Position numbers and translations under genes: made by a program. This document shows positions 3,911 through 35,975 of a DNA stretch of 39,989 bases, one piece after another. Location of the stretch: the NCBI GenBank assembly GCA_041559575.1, contig JBFFDD010000002.1, positions 1-39,989 on the forward strand, given 5' to 3'. The notes below the pieces were generated by a model that was given only the letters and a program-made list of their open reading frames with translations, was not told where the DNA came from and searched no databases. Within the stretch, counting starts at the first letter, position 1. Every line of letters begins with the position of its first letter. This DNA comes from a bacterium. Lineage in GTDB: Bacteria > BMS3Abin14.

Positions 3911-3959
3911 GAGAGTGGAAAGTGGAAAGGGAAAAGGGGAAAGAAAGACGAAGGAGCAA
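3911..3959. repeat. purine-rich heptamer array (GGAAAGT family), 7 units, starting on the base after the ATPase stop codon
   Basis: Reads gagagtg gaaagtg gaaaggg aaaaggg gaaagaa agacgaa ggagcaa. The 13-mer gagagtggaaagt recurs as a reverse complement at 34717..34729. Confidence 0.7.
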
Positions 3960-5307: not shown

Positions 5308-5407
5308 CACGTGGAGAGTGAAGGTTAAAAAGGGAAAGGGGGAGGCCTTGATGATTCCTCCTCCATCCTTCATCATTCACCCTCCAGGTCTCTCCTGCAC
5401 GGGTTCC

Positions 5408-5498
5408 AATCTCCAATCTCCAATCTCTAATCTCCAATCTCTAATCTCCAATCTCTAATCTCCAATCTCTAATCTCCAATCTCTAATCTCCAATTTCC
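5408..5498. repeat. perfectly phased heptamer tandem array, 13 x AATCTCY (about 6.5 x AATCTCCAATCTCT)
   Basis: Counted directly: aatctcc/aatctct alternate from 5408 to 5498. The stop codon and last codons of the minus-strand gene 5483..6424 lie inside the array. Confidence 0.95.
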
Positions 5499-6424
5499 AA
5501 TACTATCTTCCCTCTCACATGTTCCGTCTCACTCAACGCGTGGGCACGGCCTGCTTCCGAGAGGGGAAAGACCTCCGTTACGCTGGTCCTCACATGCCCC
5601 TCTTCGATAAGCCCGGCGATGGTGCCAAGCTGGGCCCCGTTGGGCTGAACGAAAACACCAACCCCCCTGACGCCCCTCTCGGCGGCCTTTCCCTCGTCCG
5701 GGGGGCCGAGGATCGAGACCAGGACGCCGCCTTCCTTTAACACCTGCCAGGAGCGGTCCTGGGTTTCCCCGGCCACAGCATCGAGGACCACATCGACATC
5801 GCTGACCGCATCCTCGAAGGGAACTTGGGTGTAATCGACAACCTCGTGGGCCCCGAGATCGATCAGGTAATCCCGGTTGCGGGCCGAAGCCGTCCCGATG
5901 ACCCGGGCGCCTTTCCACCTGGCAAACTGGACGGCAAAACTGCCCACCCCGCCGGCCGCGGCATGGATAAGCACCGTCTGCCCCGCCGTGAGGTCCGCCG
6001 CATCGAACAGGGATTGCCAGGCGGTAAGGGCAGCCAGCGGTATCGACGCCGCCTGGACGTGGTCGATGGATCTGGGTTTCAGGGCTGTGAACCCGGCCTT
6101 AACAGCGACATAATCCGCATAGGCCCCGTCACGGGAGATATCGGTAAAGGCATAGACCTCCTCCCCCACCTCCTTGTCGGTGACCTCAGATCCGGCTTTT
6201 TCCACCACACCGGAAACGTCCCAACCCAGGATGACCGGAAAATGGTAGGACAGCATTCCCTCCAGATATCCGGCCCGGACCTTCCAGTCAACGGGATTGA
6301 CGCCGGCTGCGTGGACACGGATCAGCACGTCGTCCTCCGATATATCCGGTACAGGAGCCTCCTCCAGAGCGAGGACATCGTGGCCGCCGTAGGAATGGAT
6401 ACGTACCGCTTTCATCTTGTCCAT
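5483..6424 (-). CDS. NADPH:quinone reductase / zinc-type alcohol dehydrogenase-like (MDR superfamily) oxidoreductase
   Basis: MKAVRIHSYGG... N-terminus and Rossmann motif AAGGVGSFAVQFAR. Start chosen at ATG 6424 (MDKMKAV) because GAGGAGAA lies just upstream. Confidence 0.85.
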   Translation of the reverse strand: MDKMKAVRIHSYGGHDVLALEEAPVPDISEDDVLIRVHAAGVNPVDWKVRAGYLEGMLSYHFPVILGWDVSGVVEKAGSEVTDKEVGEEVYAFTDISRDGAYADYVAVKAGFTALKPRSIDHVQAASIPLAALTAWQSLFDAADLTAGQTVLIHAAAGGVGSFAVQFARWKGARVIGTASARNRDYLIDLGAHEVVDYTQVPFEDAVSDVDVVLDAVAGETQDRSWQVLKEGGVLVSILGPPDEGKAAERGVRGVGVFVQPNGAQLGTIAGLIEEGHVRTSVTEVFPLSEAGRAHALSETEHVRGKIVLEIGD

Positions 6425-6756
6425 GATCGTTCTCCTCGAAAACATTGGTTCGGAATTCAATGGAACCCCGGGTTTTTATTAACAGGAGAAGCTTACCATA
6501 AAGCTCTTGCTGCAGAGAACCCGGTCAGGTCGGGAAAAATGGAGAATGGGGAACCCTGTCGCGTGGACAGGGCGAACAGGCGACTGTGAGACAGTATGAC
6601 CAAGCAATTTACCATTTGAGCCACTTTTTGGTTGAATCGACAGGTCGATAGGTCGGGGATTGAAACGTCTCAGTTCTCAGCTCTCAGGCCTAAATTATCA
6701 ATCACCTGATATAATTACCCTGTGACCATATTCCAATGATGGGGGGTAACTGAAAC

Positions 6757-7234: not shown

Positions 7235-7311
7235 GGAAAGTGGAAAGTGAAAGGAGAAAGCGTAAACCTCTTCAACCTTTCTCCATTAACCTTTAACCTT
7301 TGCCCTTAACC
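7235..7311. repeat. composite 11-heptamer (77 bp) element: GGAAAGT-type units followed by CTTTAAC-type units
   Basis: Reads ggaaagt ggaaagt gaaagga gaaagcg taaacct cttcaac ctttctc cattaac ctttaac ctttgcc cttaacc in one register. ggagaaag (7253..7260) can pair with ctttctcc (7277..7284). It lies between the convergent genes ybaK-like and cfa. Confidence 0.85.
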
Positions 7312-18890: not shown

Positions 18891-19988
18891 ATGGCCCGAT
18901 GTGAACTCTGCCATTTGTCGGATCGGACAATTTCCCGGGAATTGGGGGTCTGTCTCCGGTGTATCAGGGAAGATCCCGACCAGGCTCTCCCGTTGGCGGG
19001 CGAGGCCCACCGCCGGAGCCGGAGGGAATTTGGCCTGCCGGAAAAGGTCCCCAAGCATGCTGACGGACTTGCCTGTATCGTCTGCGTCAACGAATGCCTG
19101 ATCCCCGAGGGAGAGCGGGGGTACTGCGGCCTGAGGATTAACGAGGGAGGAAAGCTGACCGGCGTCTCCTCAGACCGGGGAAAACTGTCCTGGTACCGCG
19201 ATCCCCTGCCCACCAACTGTGTCTCCGACTGGGTGTGTCCCGCCGGGACCGGATGCGGATATCCGGAGTACTCCCTCACCAGCGGCCCGGAGGTCGGTTA
19301 TAGCAACCTGGCGGTCTTCTTCCACGCCTGCTCCCTGGAGTGCCTTTCCTGCCAGAACTGGCAATTCCGGAACGCCACCATGGAACCTGAGGTCAAGTCG
19401 CCGGAAGACCTCGCTGAGGCGGTGGACGACCGGACAGCCTGCATCTGTTATTTCGGCGGCGACCCGGCGCCCCAGGCTCCGTTTGCCATCCAGGCGTCCC
19501 AAGCCGCCATGAAAAGGAGGAAAAAAGGCATCCTGAGGATATGCTGGGAGACCAACGGCACAGCCGCGACCCACCTCATGGACGATATGCTCGAGCTTTC
19601 CCTGACCTCCGGCGGCTGTGTCAAGTTCGATCTGAAAGCACACGATGAGAAGCTGGCCCTCGCCCTGACAGGGGTCACCAATCGACGCACCCTGGAAAAC
19701 TTCCAGAGGACAGTGGAGGCGTCAAGGGATCGCCCCATCCCTCCCCCGGTGGTAGCCAGTACCTTGATGGTCCCCGGCTACATCGACGAAAGTGAGATCC
19801 GCTCCATCGCCCGGTTCATCGCCTCGGCCGATCCCGGCATCCCCTACAGCCTCCTGGCCTTCTATCCCCATTTCCGCATGCGGGACCTCCCGCTTATGAC
19901 CAGAGATGAGGCTGAGGCGATGAGGGATAGCGCGCTGGCAGAGGGACTGACCCGGGTGAAGTTGGGGAATGAGCATTTATTGAGATAG
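18891..19988 (+). CDS. radical SAM enzyme, PflA/AmmeMemoRadiSam-like activase family, with Cys-rich N-terminal extension
   Basis: CX3CX2C motif CSLECLSCQNW. N-terminal CELCH...CLRC and CIVCVNEC clusters. GERGYCGLR motif typical of this rSAM subgroup. Confidence 0.75.
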   Translation: MARCELCHLSDRTISRELGVCLRCIREDPDQALPLAGEAHRRSRREFGLPEKVPKHADGLACIVCVNECLIPEGERGYCGLRINEGGKLTGVSSDRGKLSWYRDPLPTNCVSDWVCPAGTGCGYPEYSLTSGPEVGYSNLAVFFHACSLECLSCQNWQFRNATMEPEVKSPEDLAEAVDDRTACICYFGGDPAPQAPFAIQASQAAMKRRKKGILRICWETNGTAATHLMDDMLELSLTSGGCVKFDLKAHDEKLALALTGVTNRRTLENFQRTVEASRDRPIPPPVVASTLMVPGYIDESEIRSIARFIASADPGIPYSLLAFYPHFRMRDLPLMTRDEAEAMRDSALAEGLTRVKLGNEHLLR

Positions 19989-20023
19989 GGATTAGAGATT
20001 GGAGATTGGAGATTGAAGATTGA
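19989..20023. repeat. heptamer array 5 x AGATTGR (complement of the AATCTCY family), starting on the base after the stop codon
   Basis: Reads ggattag agattgg agattgg agattga agattga. This is the same family as 5408..5498 in the opposite orientation. Confidence 0.85.
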
Positions 20024-20073
20024 AAACCAGAATAATATATCATTAGAGCATTAGAAAGATCCTTTAAACCATT

Positions 20074-20108
20074 AATGTCCAATATCTAATTTCTAATTTC
20101 CAATGGTC
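20074..20108. repeat. heptamer array 5 x AATNTCY, inverted partner of 19989..20023
   Basis: Reads aatgtcc aatatct aatttct aatttcc aatggtc. With 19989..20023 it forms an imperfect inverted repeat around an AT-rich 50-nt spacer. Confidence 0.7.
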
Positions 20109-20151
20109 AAAATATCTAGACACCAGACCCTGAAACCTGGACACCGCTCCC

Positions 20152-20727
20152 ATGGATTGGCACTCCCCATCACTCTTCGCTATCCTTGACGGTCGCGACG
20201 GAAAAGCCCTTCTTGGGCAATGCCTCAAAGGGGATTTCACCCCCGTGTTCCGGGCCCTCGCATTCCATAAGGTTCGATATCTCATTGTCGGCGGCGCGGC
20301 CATGAACCTGCACGGGATCCCCCGGTTGACGGATGATCTGGACCTGTTCGTAGATCTCCGTGAGGACAACCTGGTCCGGTTGCAGGCTGCCATGGAGGAT
20401 CTGGGATGTACGCCCCCTCCTTCGGTGGACCCTGACCACATCCTGCAGGAGGAGTCCCGGAAAATACTTTCCCGGGAAAGCTGCAGATCCACCATCTCAT
20501 TCATCAACCCTGAGGAACCCGGCCTCAAGGTCGAAATCCTGCTTCTGGCCCCAGCATCCTTCAATGAGGTCTACCCGAGGCGGCAGTGGACCCCCTTCGG
20601 CGAAATGGAACTCCCGGTCCTGTGCCTCGATGACATGATAAGGTTCCTTAACCTATACGGCCGGGACCAGGACCCAAGGGATATTCAGATATTGGAAAAA
20701 GTGCGGGAGATCAGAGGGAAGAGATAG
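20152..20727 (+). CDS. nucleotidyltransferase-fold (MNT-like) protein, uncharacterised
   Basis: The G-x(n)-DxD pattern VGGAAMNLHGIPRLTDDLDLFVD is typical of minimal nucleotidyltransferases. No adjacent HEPN-like partner is seen. Confidence 0.55.
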   Translation: MDWHSPSLFAILDGRDGKALLGQCLKGDFTPVFRALAFHKVRYLIVGGAAMNLHGIPRLTDDLDLFVDLREDNLVRLQAAMEDLGCTPPPSVDPDHILQEESRKILSRESCRSTISFINPEEPGLKVEILLLAPASFNEVYPRRQWTPFGEMELPVLCLDDMIRFLNLYGRDQDPRDIQILEKVREIRGKR

Positions 20728-20844
20728 TTTCCAGTTTCTAGTTTCCAGTTTTCAGTTTCCAGTTTCCAGTTTTCAGTTTCCAGCTTCCAGTTTCCAGTTC
20801 TCAGTACTTAGCTCTTAGTTCTTGGCTCTCAGTTCTCAGCTCCT
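20726..20844. repeat. 17 consecutive in-register heptamers drifting from AGTTTCC to AGTTCTC/AGCTCTT
   Basis: Counted directly: agtttcc agtttct agtttcc agttttc agtttcc agtttcc agttttc agtttcc agcttcc agtttcc agttctc agtactt agctctt agttctt ggctctc agttctc agctcct. The array starts inside the TAG stop of the upstream gene. Confidence 0.95.
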
Positions 20845-20859
20845 AAGAGATGTCCCTAC

Positions 20860-21843
20860 CTACCAGCGGACGATGGCGCCCGCCCAGGTCAGTCCGGCTC
20901 CAAACCCGATAAGGGCTACAATGTCGCCGTCCTTGATCCTGCCGTCCCGGTTTGCCTCGTCCAGGGCGATCGGTATGGTCCCGGCCGAGGTATTGCCGTA
21001 CCTGTCGAGGTTGATGACGAATTTCTCCTTGGCGATATCCAGGGACTTGGCGGCCGCCTCGATGATCCTGATGTTGGCCTGGTGGGGGATGATCCAGTCC
21101 ACATCAGCAAGGGTCAACCCGTCGGTCAGGGCGAGAGCCCCGTGTACGGCATCGGGCAGAGCCCTGACCCCGAACTTGAAAACCTCCTTACCCTCCATGC
21201 GGATGGCAAAGTCCTTGCTGCCGTATTCACCTAAGGGATTAAGATCTGCCACACCCGGTTCAACAGCCAACCAGGGCGGCGGGGCGGAACCGTCGGCTTT
21301 CAGGTAGGTGGAGAGGATGCCGCGGTCATCACCCTCATGGCGAAGGATGGCCGCTCCCCCTCCATCAGCGAACAGGACACAGGTGTTTCTGTCACTCCAG
21401 TCAAGGACCCTCGAAAGAGTCTCGGCTCCTATAACAAGGGCTGTTTTAACACCGTGATCCGGCATCATGCTGTCGGCCACCGCCAGGCCGTAGACAAATC
21501 CGGAACAGGCAGCCTCAAGGTCGAAGCAGGCGGCGTTGACGGCGCCGATCTTGCCCTGGACGAGACAGGCCGTAGATGGAAGAAGCCTGTCAGGTGACAG
21601 GGTGGCAACGATGATCAGATCGATCTCCTCCGCTCCGATGCCCGCCATCTCAATGGCATTCATCGCTGCGGCGGCACTGAAGTCCGAGGTGGTCTCGTGA
21701 TCCTCGGCGAGGCGCCGCTCCTTGATCCCGGTCCGGGACTGAATCCACTCATCCGATGTATCGACGATCTTGGCAAGATCCTGGTTGGTCACCACCCTGG
21801 CGGGAACCCCCGTCCCGGTTCCAATGATCCGGTTGCCCTTCAT
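20860..21843 (-). CDS. fabH: 3-oxoacyl-ACP synthase III (KAS III)
   Basis: Catalytic triad contexts ACSGFVYGL (Cys), IPHQANIRII (His) and GNTSAGTIPIAL (Asn); 327 aa. Confidence 0.9.
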   Translation of the reverse strand: MKGNRIIGTGTGVPARVVTNQDLAKIVDTSDEWIQSRTGIKERRLAEDHETTSDFSAAAAMNAIEMAGIGAEEIDLIIVATLSPDRLLPSTACLVQGKIGAVNAACFDLEAACSGFVYGLAVADSMMPDHGVKTALVIGAETLSRVLDWSDRNTCVLFADGGGAAILRHEGDDRGILSTYLKADGSAPPPWLAVEPGVADLNPLGEYGSKDFAIRMEGKEVFKFGVRALPDAVHGALALTDGLTLADVDWIIPHQANIRIIEAAAKSLDIAKEKFVINLDRYGNTSAGTIPIALDEANRDGRIKDGDIVALIGFGAGLTWAGAIVRW

Positions 21844-21973: not shown

Positions 21974-22762
21974 TTAATCAAAAGTACTCTTGACACCAAC
22001 AGCAAGCATCCGCCGATTCATGAAGCCAAAGTCTCCCCGGCGATCATGGGGGGAGAAATCCTTCCTCACCTCGATCTCGCAAAAACCAGTTTTCTCCATG
22101 AGACCGGCGAGATCAGCCGATTCGAAAAGACGGATCCGGTATGCCTGATCCCGCAGTAATCCCTTCTCCTTGCACATGACCAGTTCACGGGCTTTTACCG
22201 CGTTGCCGTTCAACACCCGTTCACGACAGACCACCACCGTCCCGTCCGTCTCATGCCATGCTATGGGGGATATATCCTCCTTGACCTTTCCCCCATCGGC
22301 CACATCCACCAGAAGGATACCGCCGGGTTTCAACAGGCGATGGGCCTCCCTGATGATCTTCCGGTCATCCTTCGCCTCAGGCAGATATCCGAGGGAATTC
22401 CCCATGATCAGGATGTGGTCAAAGGTTGAATCCGGCAACCCGGTATCCCGAGCATCTCCCTGGAGGAAGCGCACAGGGCACTCGCGCTCTTTGGCTATAT
22501 CTTTGCCTCGATCGATGAGGAACTGAGAATAATCCAGGACCGTGCAACCGGTGTATCCCCTTGATGCCAGTTCCAGGCTGTGCCTTCCCTGGCCGCCGCA
22601 CAGATCCAATATGAGATGATCCCGATCAAGGGGCAGGAGATCACAGATCAGGTCCACCTCACGGGCCGACAGCTCGTCATCACACACCGATCGTGCATCG
22701 GTGAGCAGGTAGACGTCATCGAAAAGTGTTTTCCACCAGTCCGGTGCAACTTCAATCGTCAT
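21974..22762 (-). CDS. class I SAM-dependent methyltransferase
   Basis: Motif I ILDLCGGQGRHS and post-I/II LKPGGILLVDV. Start at ATG 22762 has RBS GGAGGA and an ATGA overlap with the upstream gene's stop. Confidence 0.8.
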   Translation of the reverse strand: MTIEVAPDWWKTLFDDVYLLTDARSVCDDELSAREVDLICDLLPLDRDHLILDLCGGQGRHSLELASRGYTGCTVLDYSQFLIDRGKDIAKERECPVRFLQGDARDTGLPDSTFDHILIMGNSLGYLPEAKDDRKIIREAHRLLKPGGILLVDVADGGKVKEDISPIAWHETDGTVVVCRERVLNGNAVKARELVMCKEKGLLRDQAYRIRLFESADLAGLMEKTGFCEIEVRKDFSPHDRRGDFGFMNRRMLAVGVKSTFD

Positions 22763-24150
22763 GAATCCTCCGGATGGGCCCCGAAACTGAACAAACCATC
22801 CGAGGCAAAGACCGCAGGGCCGCCGCCCCACTTCTGGCTGCGGGAGATGGCCAGTTCCTCCTCCTCCATATCCACATATTCGTCCAGTTCACCGGCAAGC
22901 CACATCTTCTCGAGGGTCAGACAGTCTCCCCACATGGCTTCGCCGTAGTGTTCCAGGGCATCCAGATGCCCGGGGGCTATGATGCGGGGCCTCAGAGCGA
23001 TCCGAATGGGGCCGAGGAGGTAGGTAAACCGGTGCTCCAGAGCCAGTTCCTCCTGCAGATCGACCACTTGCCGAACATCCGCATATCCCATGGATACGAT
23101 AGCATCGTTGATCCTGTTCACCGCCTCCCGGACAGACATCCGGGAACGGAGTACGGCCATGGGCTGGACACCTCCTCCACTGCCGACGTTGGTGGGCACC
23201 CCGCCGAATCTGACAAGGAAACCGAACAGCCCATCAGGCCCCATAAGACAGCGGAAATCGGTCTGGTAGCGCTCGATGTCGATCCTTTCGTCCTCGACAT
23301 TGAGGGCGGGGTTGTCCTCCGCCCAGAGGTTCAGGGGTATCTTTTCCTGGACTATATAATCGCCCTTCCTCAGAGCGAGATCAATCGCGTCATCCGGGTC
23401 GGGATTGACCCCGCCGACACGGACCCCGATCCCTGAGTATCCTCTTTCAGGCTTGAGAACCAGGTTATCCCAGTTCTCACGGGTCCACTGCACCAGGTCG
23501 CCGATTTTTTCACCATCCGGCCCGGCAGCTTTCCTGGGGGAAAAGCGAGCTGTCCACGGAGTCCTCTTGACCGTCTCCGGGTGGAACCGGTCACGGTATT
23601 TTCCGTACATCACCTCGAACATGCTCTTGACGTTGATGGGTTCAGTCCCGCGGGGATTGATCACCCTTCCCTCCCGGACCGCCTGCAGGAGGGGGTCGAG
23701 ACCTTTTTTACGATGCAGCGACAGGAGGACATCGGTGTTGAAGTCCATGAAGATGGTTCCCACTGTCTCACCGCGCCATGAGACCCGGCCCGACTGAACC
23801 TCCAACTCATGGGGAGCTATCAGGGCACTGCTGATGCCGTCACACTCGTTGAGGCGCTTGGCAAGGTTGATGTTCTCCGTGACGTCCTCGAGGGTCTCCT
23901 CCTCAGCCACCACGGCGATAAACCCCGCATCGGACCCTTCCCGGTCCCTCTGGGCCTTGATCAGCATGTCGACAAACCCGTATACCGGATAGAGAAGTGG
24001 GTGGTCAAAATCAAGGTCTACGCCCATATTCCTGACCCGGTTCAGCCTCTCCCACACCGCCTTGCCGATGACCTGGGTAACCCTCTGGTAATCCCAACCG
24101 CCCGGGCTTCCCAGGTTCCATTCCGAATGATATCCGAGGAATTCTTCCAT
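22759..24150 (-). CDS. ATP-grasp-like putative amide-bond ligase (family not resolved)
   Basis: LVLKPERGYSGIGVRVGG ... YIVQEKIPL ... TDFRCLMGPDGLFGFLVRFGGVPTNVGSGGG matches the general ATP-grasp core (KP..G.gG.G; IvQe; R...N...GG). Long N- and C-terminal extensions. Confidence 0.5.
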   Translation of the reverse strand: MEEFLGYHSEWNLGSPGGWDYQRVTQVIGKAVWERLNRVRNMGVDLDFDHPLLYPVYGFVDMLIKAQRDREGSDAGFIAVVAEEETLEDVTENINLAKRLNECDGISSALIAPHELEVQSGRVSWRGETVGTIFMDFNTDVLLSLHRKKGLDPLLQAVREGRVINPRGTEPINVKSMFEVMYGKYRDRFHPETVKRTPWTARFSPRKAAGPDGEKIGDLVQWTRENWDNLVLKPERGYSGIGVRVGGVNPDPDDAIDLALRKGDYIVQEKIPLNLWAEDNPALNVEDERIDIERYQTDFRCLMGPDGLFGFLVRFGGVPTNVGSGGGVQPMAVLRSRMSVREAVNRINDAIVSMGYADVRQVVDLQEELALEHRFTYLLGPIRIALRPRIIAPGHLDALEHYGEAMWGDCLTLEKMWLAGELDEYVDMEEEELAISRSQKWGGGPAVFASDGLFSFGAHPEDS

Positions 24151-24159
24151 GATTCGTTC

Positions 24160-24257
24160 GTTCCAGGTTTCAGGTTTCAGGTTTCAGAAAATGTTCCAAA
24201 ATCCAAGGTCCAAAATCAACAATAAGAACCTTTAACCACAGAGGACACAGAGAGGGG
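24160..24257. repeat. 14 in-register heptamers spanning four motif families (GTTTCAG, TCCAAAA, CTTTAAC, CACAGAG)
   Basis: Reads gttccag gtttcag gtttcag gtttcag aaaatgt tccaaaa tccaagg tccaaaa tcaacaa taagaac ctttaac cacagag gacacag agagggg. Confidence 0.85.
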
Positions 24258-25966: not shown

Positions 25967-25980
25967 GGGAGAATATTACA

Positions 25981-26024
25981 GGGGAAAGGAAAAAGGGAAA
26001 AGGGGAAGGTGGAAAAGTGAAAGC
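25981..26024. repeat. purine-rich heptamer array (GGGAAAA/GGAAAGT family)
   Basis: Reads ggggaaa ggaaaaa gggaaaa ggggaag gtggaaa agtgaaa. Confidence 0.6.
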
Positions 26025-26121
26025 AATTTCCAGGATCTGGTGTCTGGAATCTTGAGTATGGAACCCAGATCTTAGAACCCGCAGCCAGGACCTGGATTTC
26101 CCCTCTGCAGTTTATGTCTTG

Positions 26122-26156
26122 ACTTAGCACTTAGCACTTTGTGCTTAGCACTGCTT
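26122..26156. repeat. heptamer array 5 x ACTTAGC-type, ending 1 nt before a minus-strand stop codon
   Basis: Reads acttagc acttagc actttgt gcttagc actgctt. Confidence 0.7.
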
Positions 26157-27459: not shown

Positions 27460-27522
27460 AATTTTGAATTTTGAATATGGAATTTTTTTCTGTTACTAAT
27501 CACAAATCACGAATCACGGACT
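27460..27522. repeat. heptamer array (AATTTTG then ACNAATC units), 9 units
   Basis: Reads aattttg aattttg aatatgg aattttt ttctgtt actaatc acaaatc acgaatc acggact. Confidence 0.65.
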
Positions 27523-35646: not shown

Positions 35647-35889
35647 ATCCCTCCCCGAAATTTACAATGAATTCAATCAGTTATAAACCGGATTCCTTTG
35701 TGAACCTATAAACCCTTCATCCCCTTCGGATAAACTAGTTGAAACTATACTTTCAGCCCGATTTTTGTCAAGGGAAGAGGGGAAAAATGCCGTAATCAGA
35801 GGAATTTTTCCCGGTGTTTAGTGTCCGGTTTCTGGAAAAGGATGAATCGAGCCGCTTCTGAGGATCCGGAAAGTCGCTATGAATTCTGA

Positions 35890-35945
35890 TGGATAGTGGA
35901 AACTGGAAACTGAAAACTGGAAACTGAAAACTCGAAACTGCGGAA
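35890..35945. repeat. heptamer array 8 x TGRAAAC (complement of the AGTTTCC family)
   Basis: Reads tggatag tggaaac tggaaac tgaaaac tggaaac tgaaaac tcgaaac tgcggaa. This is the same family as 20726..20844 in the opposite orientation. Confidence 0.85.
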
Positions 35946-35975
35946 AAATATCACGGAAAATGGTATTTTCCCGCC

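Follow-up and report, generated by a model that had tools for sequence, protein, structure and literature searches.

Tandem repeats with a unit of seven nucleotides (nt) are known from several scattered groups of bacteria. Heptanucleotides form the most over-represented class of long simple sequence repeats (SSRs) in many bacteria, according to those sections of two later papers that summarise the survey of Mrazek (2007) (PMC4679880, PMC4692102). In the same sections the lengths of long SSRs are said to vary between close relatives and polymerase slippage is blamed, with the proposal that slippage would be favoured by a unit as long as the stretch of DNA that the polymerase holds, 7 nt (Mrazek et al. 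2007, via PMC4679880 and PMC4692102). Individual cases include three heptanucleotides in Calothrix PCC7601 and GGGGAYT in Nostoc (PMC4692102), GGGAATC in Xanthomonas, whose arrays differ widely in length among related species and in some cases stand as inverted pairs where genes converge (Rehm et al. 2015, PMC4692102), TAACTGA in marine Beggiatoaceae, cyanobacteria and Bacteroidetes (MacGregor 2015, PMC4679880), GATAGRA-derived satellites in Chloroflexus (PMC6749651) and four-heptamer elements in Geobacter metallireducens (PMC2700814). Here we analyse a heptanucleotide array at positions 20726-20844 of a stretch of 39,989 nt, called the window below, from a bacterium of the lineage BMS3Abin14 (assembly GCA_041559575.1, contig JBFFDD010000002.1, forward strand). 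The array lies between the stop codons of a nucleotidyltransferase-like gene and the convergent fabH, and we consider it likely to be a near-neutral heptanucleotide SSR made by slippage, that is, a variable-number tandem repeat (VNTR) of the long-SSR type.

Read in 7-nt steps, 20726-20844 comprises 17 heptamers in one register, 16 of which begin with AG. The first AG is that of the TAG stop codon (20725-20727) of the nucleotidyltransferase-like open reading frame (ORF), and the last unit ends 15 nt before the fabH stop. All these features had been described in an earlier interpretation made from the letters alone (the sequence-only reading), and they are confirmed here. Two parts can be distinguished. 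The head (20726-20795), which is the hypervariable part, has ten units of AGTTTCC and its variants AGTTTTC, AGCTTCC and AGTTTCT, in the order AGTTTCC, AGTTTCT, AGTTTCC, AGTTTTC, AGTTTCC, AGTTTCC, AGTTTTC, AGTTTCC, AGCTTCC, AGTTTCC. The tail (20796-20844), which is the stable part, has seven degenerate units, namely AGTTCTC, AGTACTT, AGCTCTT, AGTTCTT, GGCTCTC, AGTTCTC and AGCTCCT. Tandem Repeats Finder (TRF) reports period 7 with 10.6 copies, 88% matches and a score of 120 for 20726-20799, and its overlapping rows of period 7, 14 and 28 extend to 20842. The 132-nt gap between the stop codons has a lag-7 self-identity of 0.71 versus about 0.20 at other lags, a value matched by 0 of 20000 shuffles (shuffle maximum 0.46); the tail alone has a lag-7 identity of 0.69, also reached by 0 of 20000.

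The heptamer AAGAGAT brackets the array at 20719-20725 and 20845-20851, in the array register and 126 nt (18 x 7) apart; its left copy (+ strand) consists of the last two nucleotidyltransferase codons and the T of the stop. This pair was not seen in the sister species L181 (CP070719.1), and it could be due to chance or a trace of the array's origin.

Contigs of other strains, from Joint Genome Institute (JGI) metagenomes, NCBI metagenome-assembled genomes (MAGs) and Logan assemblies, were found by exact-protein look-ups of both flanking genes, and seven contigs, the window's own included, span or wholly contain the array and hence count as complete alleles. The heads of these alleles have 10 (window), 14, 14, 15, 15, 16 and 19 units. 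No two of them agree in how the variant units AGTTTTC, AGCTTCC, AGTTTCT and AGTAGCC-TGTTTCC are ordered, and every length difference among them is a multiple of 7 nt. The copy-number polymorphism for which the sequence-only reading had suggested a search is therefore strongly present, with 10-19 head units in seven alleles. The surrounding DNA is nearly invariant: fabH, 15 nt from the array, is identical at 984 of 984 nt in all eleven sequences, no contig that extends into the tail or the 15-nt spacer shows any difference there, and the window differs from the JGI contigs L001 and L002 by only 19-21 substitutions over 13 kb. Within those 13 kb the only heptamer indels are in the 20726-20844 array (+35 and +42 nt relative to the window), and both flanking proteins are unchanged across the array alleles. 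Where the sequence-only reading saw a gradual, stepwise drift of the motif, we instead find a young, homogeneous and unstable block adjoining an old, degenerate and stable one.

Many short-read contigs terminate inside the head; 13 of 15 fabH-bearing contigs are shorter than 5 kb, and among those shown several break off within the array. Breaks of this kind would also be produced if the array or its variability were an artefact of collapsed or mis-joined repeats during assembly, and alleles longer than about 150 nt do exceed a typical read length. Moreover, no allele is shorter than the window's, whose 10-unit head equals that of L001 minus one 35-nt block between identical units. We nevertheless regard an artefact as very improbable, given that JGI, NCBI-MAG and Logan assemblies independently recover the array with identical flanks and tail, that the alleles differ in the order of variant units as well as in their number, and that period-7 arrays are also present in the related whole-chromosome records CP070698.1 and CP070719.1.

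Other arrays of the window are polymorphic too. The TCCAATC/TCTAATC array at 5405-5501 (TRF), with 14 units in the window, has 12 units in another order in contig L187, and contigs end inside it; this array provides the stop and last codons of a zinc alcohol-dehydrogenase (ADH) gene (5483-6460, - strand). Of the 13 other contigs that cross the gap with the six-unit GAGATTG array (19982-20022), which starts in the stop codon of a radical S-adenosylmethionine (SAM) gene, two (L018 and L020) have one unit fewer. Over the compared 13 kb no variation is seen in the arrays at 24160-24217, 25980-26152 and 27460-27518, which are short or degenerate. In this small sample, array instability rises with length and purity, and degenerate arrays are stable. 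Six independent Logan contigs (L191-L196) start at one point in a GGAAAGG-type array (3917-3943) after an ATP-binding cassette (ABC) ATPase gene; short-read assembly of this organism is broken up even by short arrays.

Period 7 is the sole enriched short period in the window. In a sliding-window scan, 132 sliding windows match themselves at 80% or more when shifted by 7 nt, whereas shifts of 5, 6, 8 or 9 nt give no such case. TRF detects some two dozen arrays with periods of 7, 14 or 21 nt in the 40 kb, and among the 31 intergenic gaps of 25 nt or more, lag 7 scores best in 17. On a gene map based on codon usage and checked with Pfam, arrays of these periods cover 888 of 6327 intergenic nt (14%) versus 52 of 33662 coding nt (0.15%), and they often adjoin stop or start codons. 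Both motif families of the 20726-20844 array are present elsewhere in the window, as the sequence-only reading had stated: the head motif AGTTTCC recurs in opposite orientation as six TGGAAAC units in a divergent gap (35897-35940), and AGCTCTC occurs as TCTCAGC at 6668-6687, while AGCACTT occurs as ACTTAGC at 26122-26152. The TGGAAAC array is bracketed by a 31-nt imperfect inverted repeat (35781-35811 and 35942-35972, 71% complementary), and its gap, upstream of an NFACT-family gene, has a folding z of -2.1 on the + strand.

A heptamer array is found 3' of the fabH stop in all nine loci of the lineage that were compared (the window, L021, L056, L101, L103, L104, L105, L181 and L182), at a distance of a few nt to 15 nt where it can be read and a few tens of nt at most. 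Identities of fabH to the window are 83% in L021 (CP070698.1, a 2.03-Mb chromosome record), 70% in L056, 83% in L101, 81% in L103, 72% in L104 and 85% in L105; L182 has arrays as well, and its copy of a 463-amino-acid (aa) protein encoded near fabH is 77% identical. The sequence-only reading had made its interpretation depend on period-7 structure in relatives, and such arrays exist at the eight related loci. More than 50 different canonical heptamers form arrays across the nine loci, and it is therefore the period, not the motif, that marks the lineage. No such arrays were found at the sampled loci of L183 (ERZ1742237 contig) and L184 (CP070682.1, 21 kb), where the 463-aa protein is 74% identical, in L185 and L186 (Syntrophobacteraceae- and Thermodesulfobacteriota-labelled MAGs), or, with trivial exceptions only, at about 155 unrelated fabH loci. 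The arrays are restricted to one lineage in this comparison.

The sister species L181 shares with the window the gene order radical SAM, nucleotidyltransferase, convergent fabH, methyltransferase, 463-aa protein and DUF885. Its nucleotidyltransferase is 54% and its FabH 88% identical in aa sequence, and the flanking genes of the two agree at only 52-60% of their third codon positions. The gap in L181 is 65 nt long and reads AGTTCCC, GGTTCTC, AGCTCTT, GGTCCTT, AGCTCTT, TGTTCCC, GGTATTC, then AGGAGATGTCCCTCC. These seven degenerate units belong to the same motif family as the window tail and occupy the same place, the first of them, AGTTCCC, being one base off AGTTTCC; there is no AGTTTCC block in the L181 gap. 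The L181 spacer matches the window spacer AAGAGATGTCCCTAC (20845-20859, 15 nt, between the array and the fabH stop and invariant among strains) at 13 of 15 positions. A unit-by-unit homology of the two tails was considered and dropped, as the diagonal score of 4.71/7 hardly differs from the off-diagonal 4.57/7; conservation between the window tail and L181 can be claimed for motif family, position and unit count only. In the orthologous gap upstream, the GAGATTG motif also occurs in L181 (as ATTGGAG), there as a 15-nt super-repeat.

The array shows the properties by which an SSR or VNTR is recognised: tandem copies of a 1-11 nt unit beyond chance, copy variation by whole units, instability that goes with length and purity, and exclusion from coding sequence of arrays whose unit is not a multiple of 3. 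The whole-unit changes point to slippage as the probable mechanism. On this account, the array would grow and shrink by whole units through slipped-strand mispairing at replication or unequal recombination between units. An old RGYTCYY-type array may have gathered point changes until neighbouring units were too unlike to slip, which would have left a frozen tail of seven units; its stability would follow from the decay of units that now match poorly. Judging from the AGTTCCC unit of L181, the head was probably derived from the edge unit of this old array next to the stop codon, which would have changed into AGTTTCC and been amplified recently to the 10-19 copies that may still be turning over. 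The preference for seven would be a property of the mutational machinery of the lineage, filling intergenic DNA with many unrelated motifs, and selection against frameshifts would keep the arrays out of genes. The array is probably neutral or nearly so.

The sequence-only reading had taken the constant phase as a sign of selection on the 7-nt period or of a generating mechanism tied to it. The second half of that proposal gains from the enrichment of lag 7 alone, from the more than 50 motifs and from the whole-heptamer changes, and it agrees with what has been published on long heptanucleotide SSRs (Mrazek 2007, via PMC4679880 and PMC4692102). The first half is not supported: since units are gained and lost only whole, the phase is shared across the array, and the common register would be inherited rather than selected, each event adding or removing 7n bases. 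Hypermutability of this sort is familiar from phase-variable SSRs, in which a change of copy number switches a gene on or off. That the array is such a contingency locus is scarcely credible, as it lies wholly between the stop codons of convergent genes and no promoter, 5' untranslated region or ORF depends on its length, both proteins being unchanged.

Some observations weigh against a near-neutral SSR. Motif families (that of the tail, and GGAGATT in the gap upstream) persist at orthologous gaps although synonymous sites are near saturation, and this persistence could reflect selection and not turnover that perpetuates itself. Conservation of the 15-nt spacer exceeds that of the third codon positions. 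Arrays can also be parts of structured and possibly functional elements, as in the inverted pairs of relatives, whose folding is much stronger than that of shuffled sequence (z about -2.4 to -8). Furthermore, the copy numbers are taken from assemblies, mostly short-read ones, and not from reads, so that single allele lengths could be wrong, and the 10-unit head of the window could be either a real deletion or an assembly collapse. A functional reading would draw on the persistence of motif families, the conserved spacer and the hairpins of relatives, and its probability is low.

The sequence-only reading had raised the possibility that the array terminates the two convergent transcripts. Folding of the 132-nt gap gives -8.3 kcal/mol on the + strand (z +1.2) and -15.3 kcal/mol on the - strand (z +1.0), and the 221-nt context has z values of +1.16 and +1.54, respectively. 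Because z is positive on both strands, the array region is less structured than shuffled sequence. No intrinsic terminator-like site was detected in 19800-21100, and the array has neither a hairpin nor a U-tract; with the positive folding z on both strands, the proposed role is not supported. Rfam 15 gave no matches at gathering score in the whole window, where no tRNA or tmRNA was found either.

The lack of structure leaves room for another kind of 3'-end element, a Rho-loading (rut-like) insulator that would stop read-through from the nucleotidyltransferase gene into the antisense of the essential fabH. The + strand RNA of the array is more than 100 nt long, pyrimidine-rich, unstructured and richer in C than in G (29% C and 14% G in the head, the tail being similar, on the nucleotidyltransferase-sense strand), and by its composition and lack of structure (z +1.2) it would, on this strand only, be compatible with Rho loading, for which a rut site is expected to offer about 70 nt or more of unstructured RNA with C > G. 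Neither convergent gene has an intrinsic terminator, and an array with a conserved spacer persists in the sister species. However, the RNA of the fabH-sense strand is G-rich, in same-direction gaps only about one array in two has its C-rich strand as the sense strand, which a general Rho role would not predict, and the two-fold variation in copy number gives no sign of constraint. According to our tallies, neither C > G nor GGA follows a sense-strand rule across the same-direction gaps of the window. We therefore hold a Rho insulator to be improbable.

In those relatives in which another gene lies downstream, the gap 3' of fabH is an inverted pair of heptamer arrays, for example (AGTCCAA)n ... 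(TTTGGAC)n, which closes a long hairpin. Such pairs occupy 10985-11150 in L021 (z -3.3), 624-735 in L056 (z -5.5), 1602-1815 in L105 (z -7.8) and 4982-5175 in L101 (z -2.4), and the hairpins are stabler on the fabH-sense strand. An inverted pair of this architecture may be a terminator or stabiliser built of heptamer repeats; it is seen neither in the fabH gap of the window nor in that of L181. A general pairing of complementary heptamer arrays into RNA hairpins was also considered and rejected, as z is unremarkable on both strands across the full set of 26 gaps of 60-400 nt; the only gaps that fit are 19989-20151 (z -2.1 on the + strand) and the one with an inverted pair at 7237-7300. In the gap 19989-20151, (GAGAUUG)n pairs with (UAAUUUC)n through G.U wobbles on the + (sense) strand only, with z values of -2.1 (+) and +0.15 (-). 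The lineage may further have a process that generates or uses repeats and is specific for period 7, such as a peculiarity of the replisome or of repair by which 7-nt slippage would dominate intergenic mutation. Its arrays would have been recruited as modular, rapidly evolvable 3'-end parts, namely as hairpins in relatives and, as a C-rich, unstructured tract in one direction, as a Rho-loading insulator between the convergent genes here. We assign this combination a small but appreciable chance.

The array might also serve as a platform for a lineage-specific binding protein, either one like CsrA that recognises GGA, with (GGAAACU)n on the fabH-sense strand as its target, or a nucleoid protein reading the 7-bp spacing, in which three units make two helical turns. 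GGA or TCC is present in 13 of the 26 period-7 motifs of the window by our tally, motif families recur at the orthologous gaps of different species, and protein binding has been proposed for the TAACTGA heptamer repeats (MacGregor 2015, PMC4679880). More than 50 unrelated motifs nevertheless speak against a single sequence-specific binder. The GGA motifs are not independent but fall into a GGAAA and a TTGGA family, they are sense in five and antisense in three same-direction gaps and hence follow no strand rule, and no candidate protein was identified. On balance such a platform seems decidedly improbable.

The genes of the window are ordinary chromosomal housekeeping genes and include glyA, nrdR, lpxC, rnf, lgt, fabH, a betaine ABC transporter and multihaem cytochromes. 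The gene at 20152-20727 (+) is an ORF of 191 aa for an AbiEii/DUF6036-like nucleotidyltransferase, with a weak Pfam match to AbiEii (23 bits) and only four homologues among 5.8 billion proteins. Its C-terminus aligns with these homologues right to the end, which rules out that insertion of the array created the stop codon or truncated the protein. No AbiEi-type antitoxin gene is evident adjoining it. It is missing near fabH in most relatives and therefore looks like an accessory gene. fabH (20860-21843, -) encodes 3-oxoacyl-acyl-carrier-protein synthase III, with the Pfam domains ACP_syn_III and ACP_syn_III_C. The gene of the 463-aa protein (22759-24150, -) has no Pfam domain and about 2000 homologues, and those listed are all at least 67% identical, the named ones coming from Thermodesulfobacteriota, Deltaproteobacteria, Syntrophobacteraceae and Pseudomonadota. 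In eight of eight loci examined it is flanked by a DUF885 gene and a SAM-methyltransferase gene, often with fabH next to them, and these three genes form a conserved cluster. The radical-SAM gene (18891-19988) has a 55-nt deletion at about 19712 in the JGI contig L002, where the called product is 300 aa long, and a 331-aa form in two further contigs; it seems variable or decaying among strains.

If the array is taken as a slippage-made SSR, the locus shows a microsatellite life cycle, from birth out of an edge unit through expansion to decay into a frozen, degenerate tail. The arrays account for the breaks that short-read assemblies of this lineage show at intergenic gaps, and they provide highly discriminating strain markers, all seven alleles being distinct, with which populations can be followed in metagenomes. 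As the sampled loci of sister genomes lack arrays, the question of why the unit is seven can be tackled through a comparison of the genes for replisome and repair in sisters with many arrays and in sisters with none.

The array resembles VNTR loci used in multiple-locus VNTR analysis (MLVA) and the contingency SSRs of pathogens in its whole-unit hypervariability among near-identical strains, but it differs from the contingency SSRs in that it bears on no reading frame or promoter, so that a switch is not to be expected. The short tandemly repeated repetitive (STRR) sequences of cyanobacteria have the canonical motifs CCCCAGT, TTGGTCA and CAACAGT. None of these is in the motif catalogue of the nine loci, and the host here is not cyanobacterial: Rnf, multihaem cytochromes and LpxC are encoded, and the closest homologues with a name (about 70%) belong to Thermodesulfobacteriota or Deltaproteobacteria MAGs. 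The likeness to STRR sequences, which are those of Calothrix and Nostoc, is that several heptamer families form intergenic tandem arrays at many loci per genome (PMC4692102). TAACTGA repeats are likewise abundant intergenic direct repeats of a heptamer in restricted lineages, but they have one motif, mostly in 2-6 copies just upstream of start codons and with a proposed role in translation, whereas the array here lies between two stop codons and TAACTGA is not in the nine-locus catalogue. The GGGAATC arrays of Xanthomonas and GGGGAYT arrays of Nostoc are intergenic arrays of 2-26 units, mostly between the same genes in related species but highly variable in length and sequence, and their occasional inverted pairs between convergent genes resemble those in relatives of the present organism; theirs is one G-rich, quadruplex-prone motif, while here the motifs are diverse and the array is without G-runs or predicted structure. 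The general class of long SSRs, as described in the literature, shares with this locus the tandem 7-nt units, the intergenic position, the scatter over certain lineages and the length variation between close relatives, and relative to those descriptions the present case adds a further lineage of uncultured MAGs, a very high density (about 24 arrays per 40 kb, 14% of intergenic bases) and very many motifs. The array is thus an ordinary heptanucleotide microsatellite in kind and one of dozens, in a lineage that is unusually dense and diverse in them and that represents an extreme, cleanly bounded case of the long-noted and unexplained excess of 7-nt repeats in bacteria.

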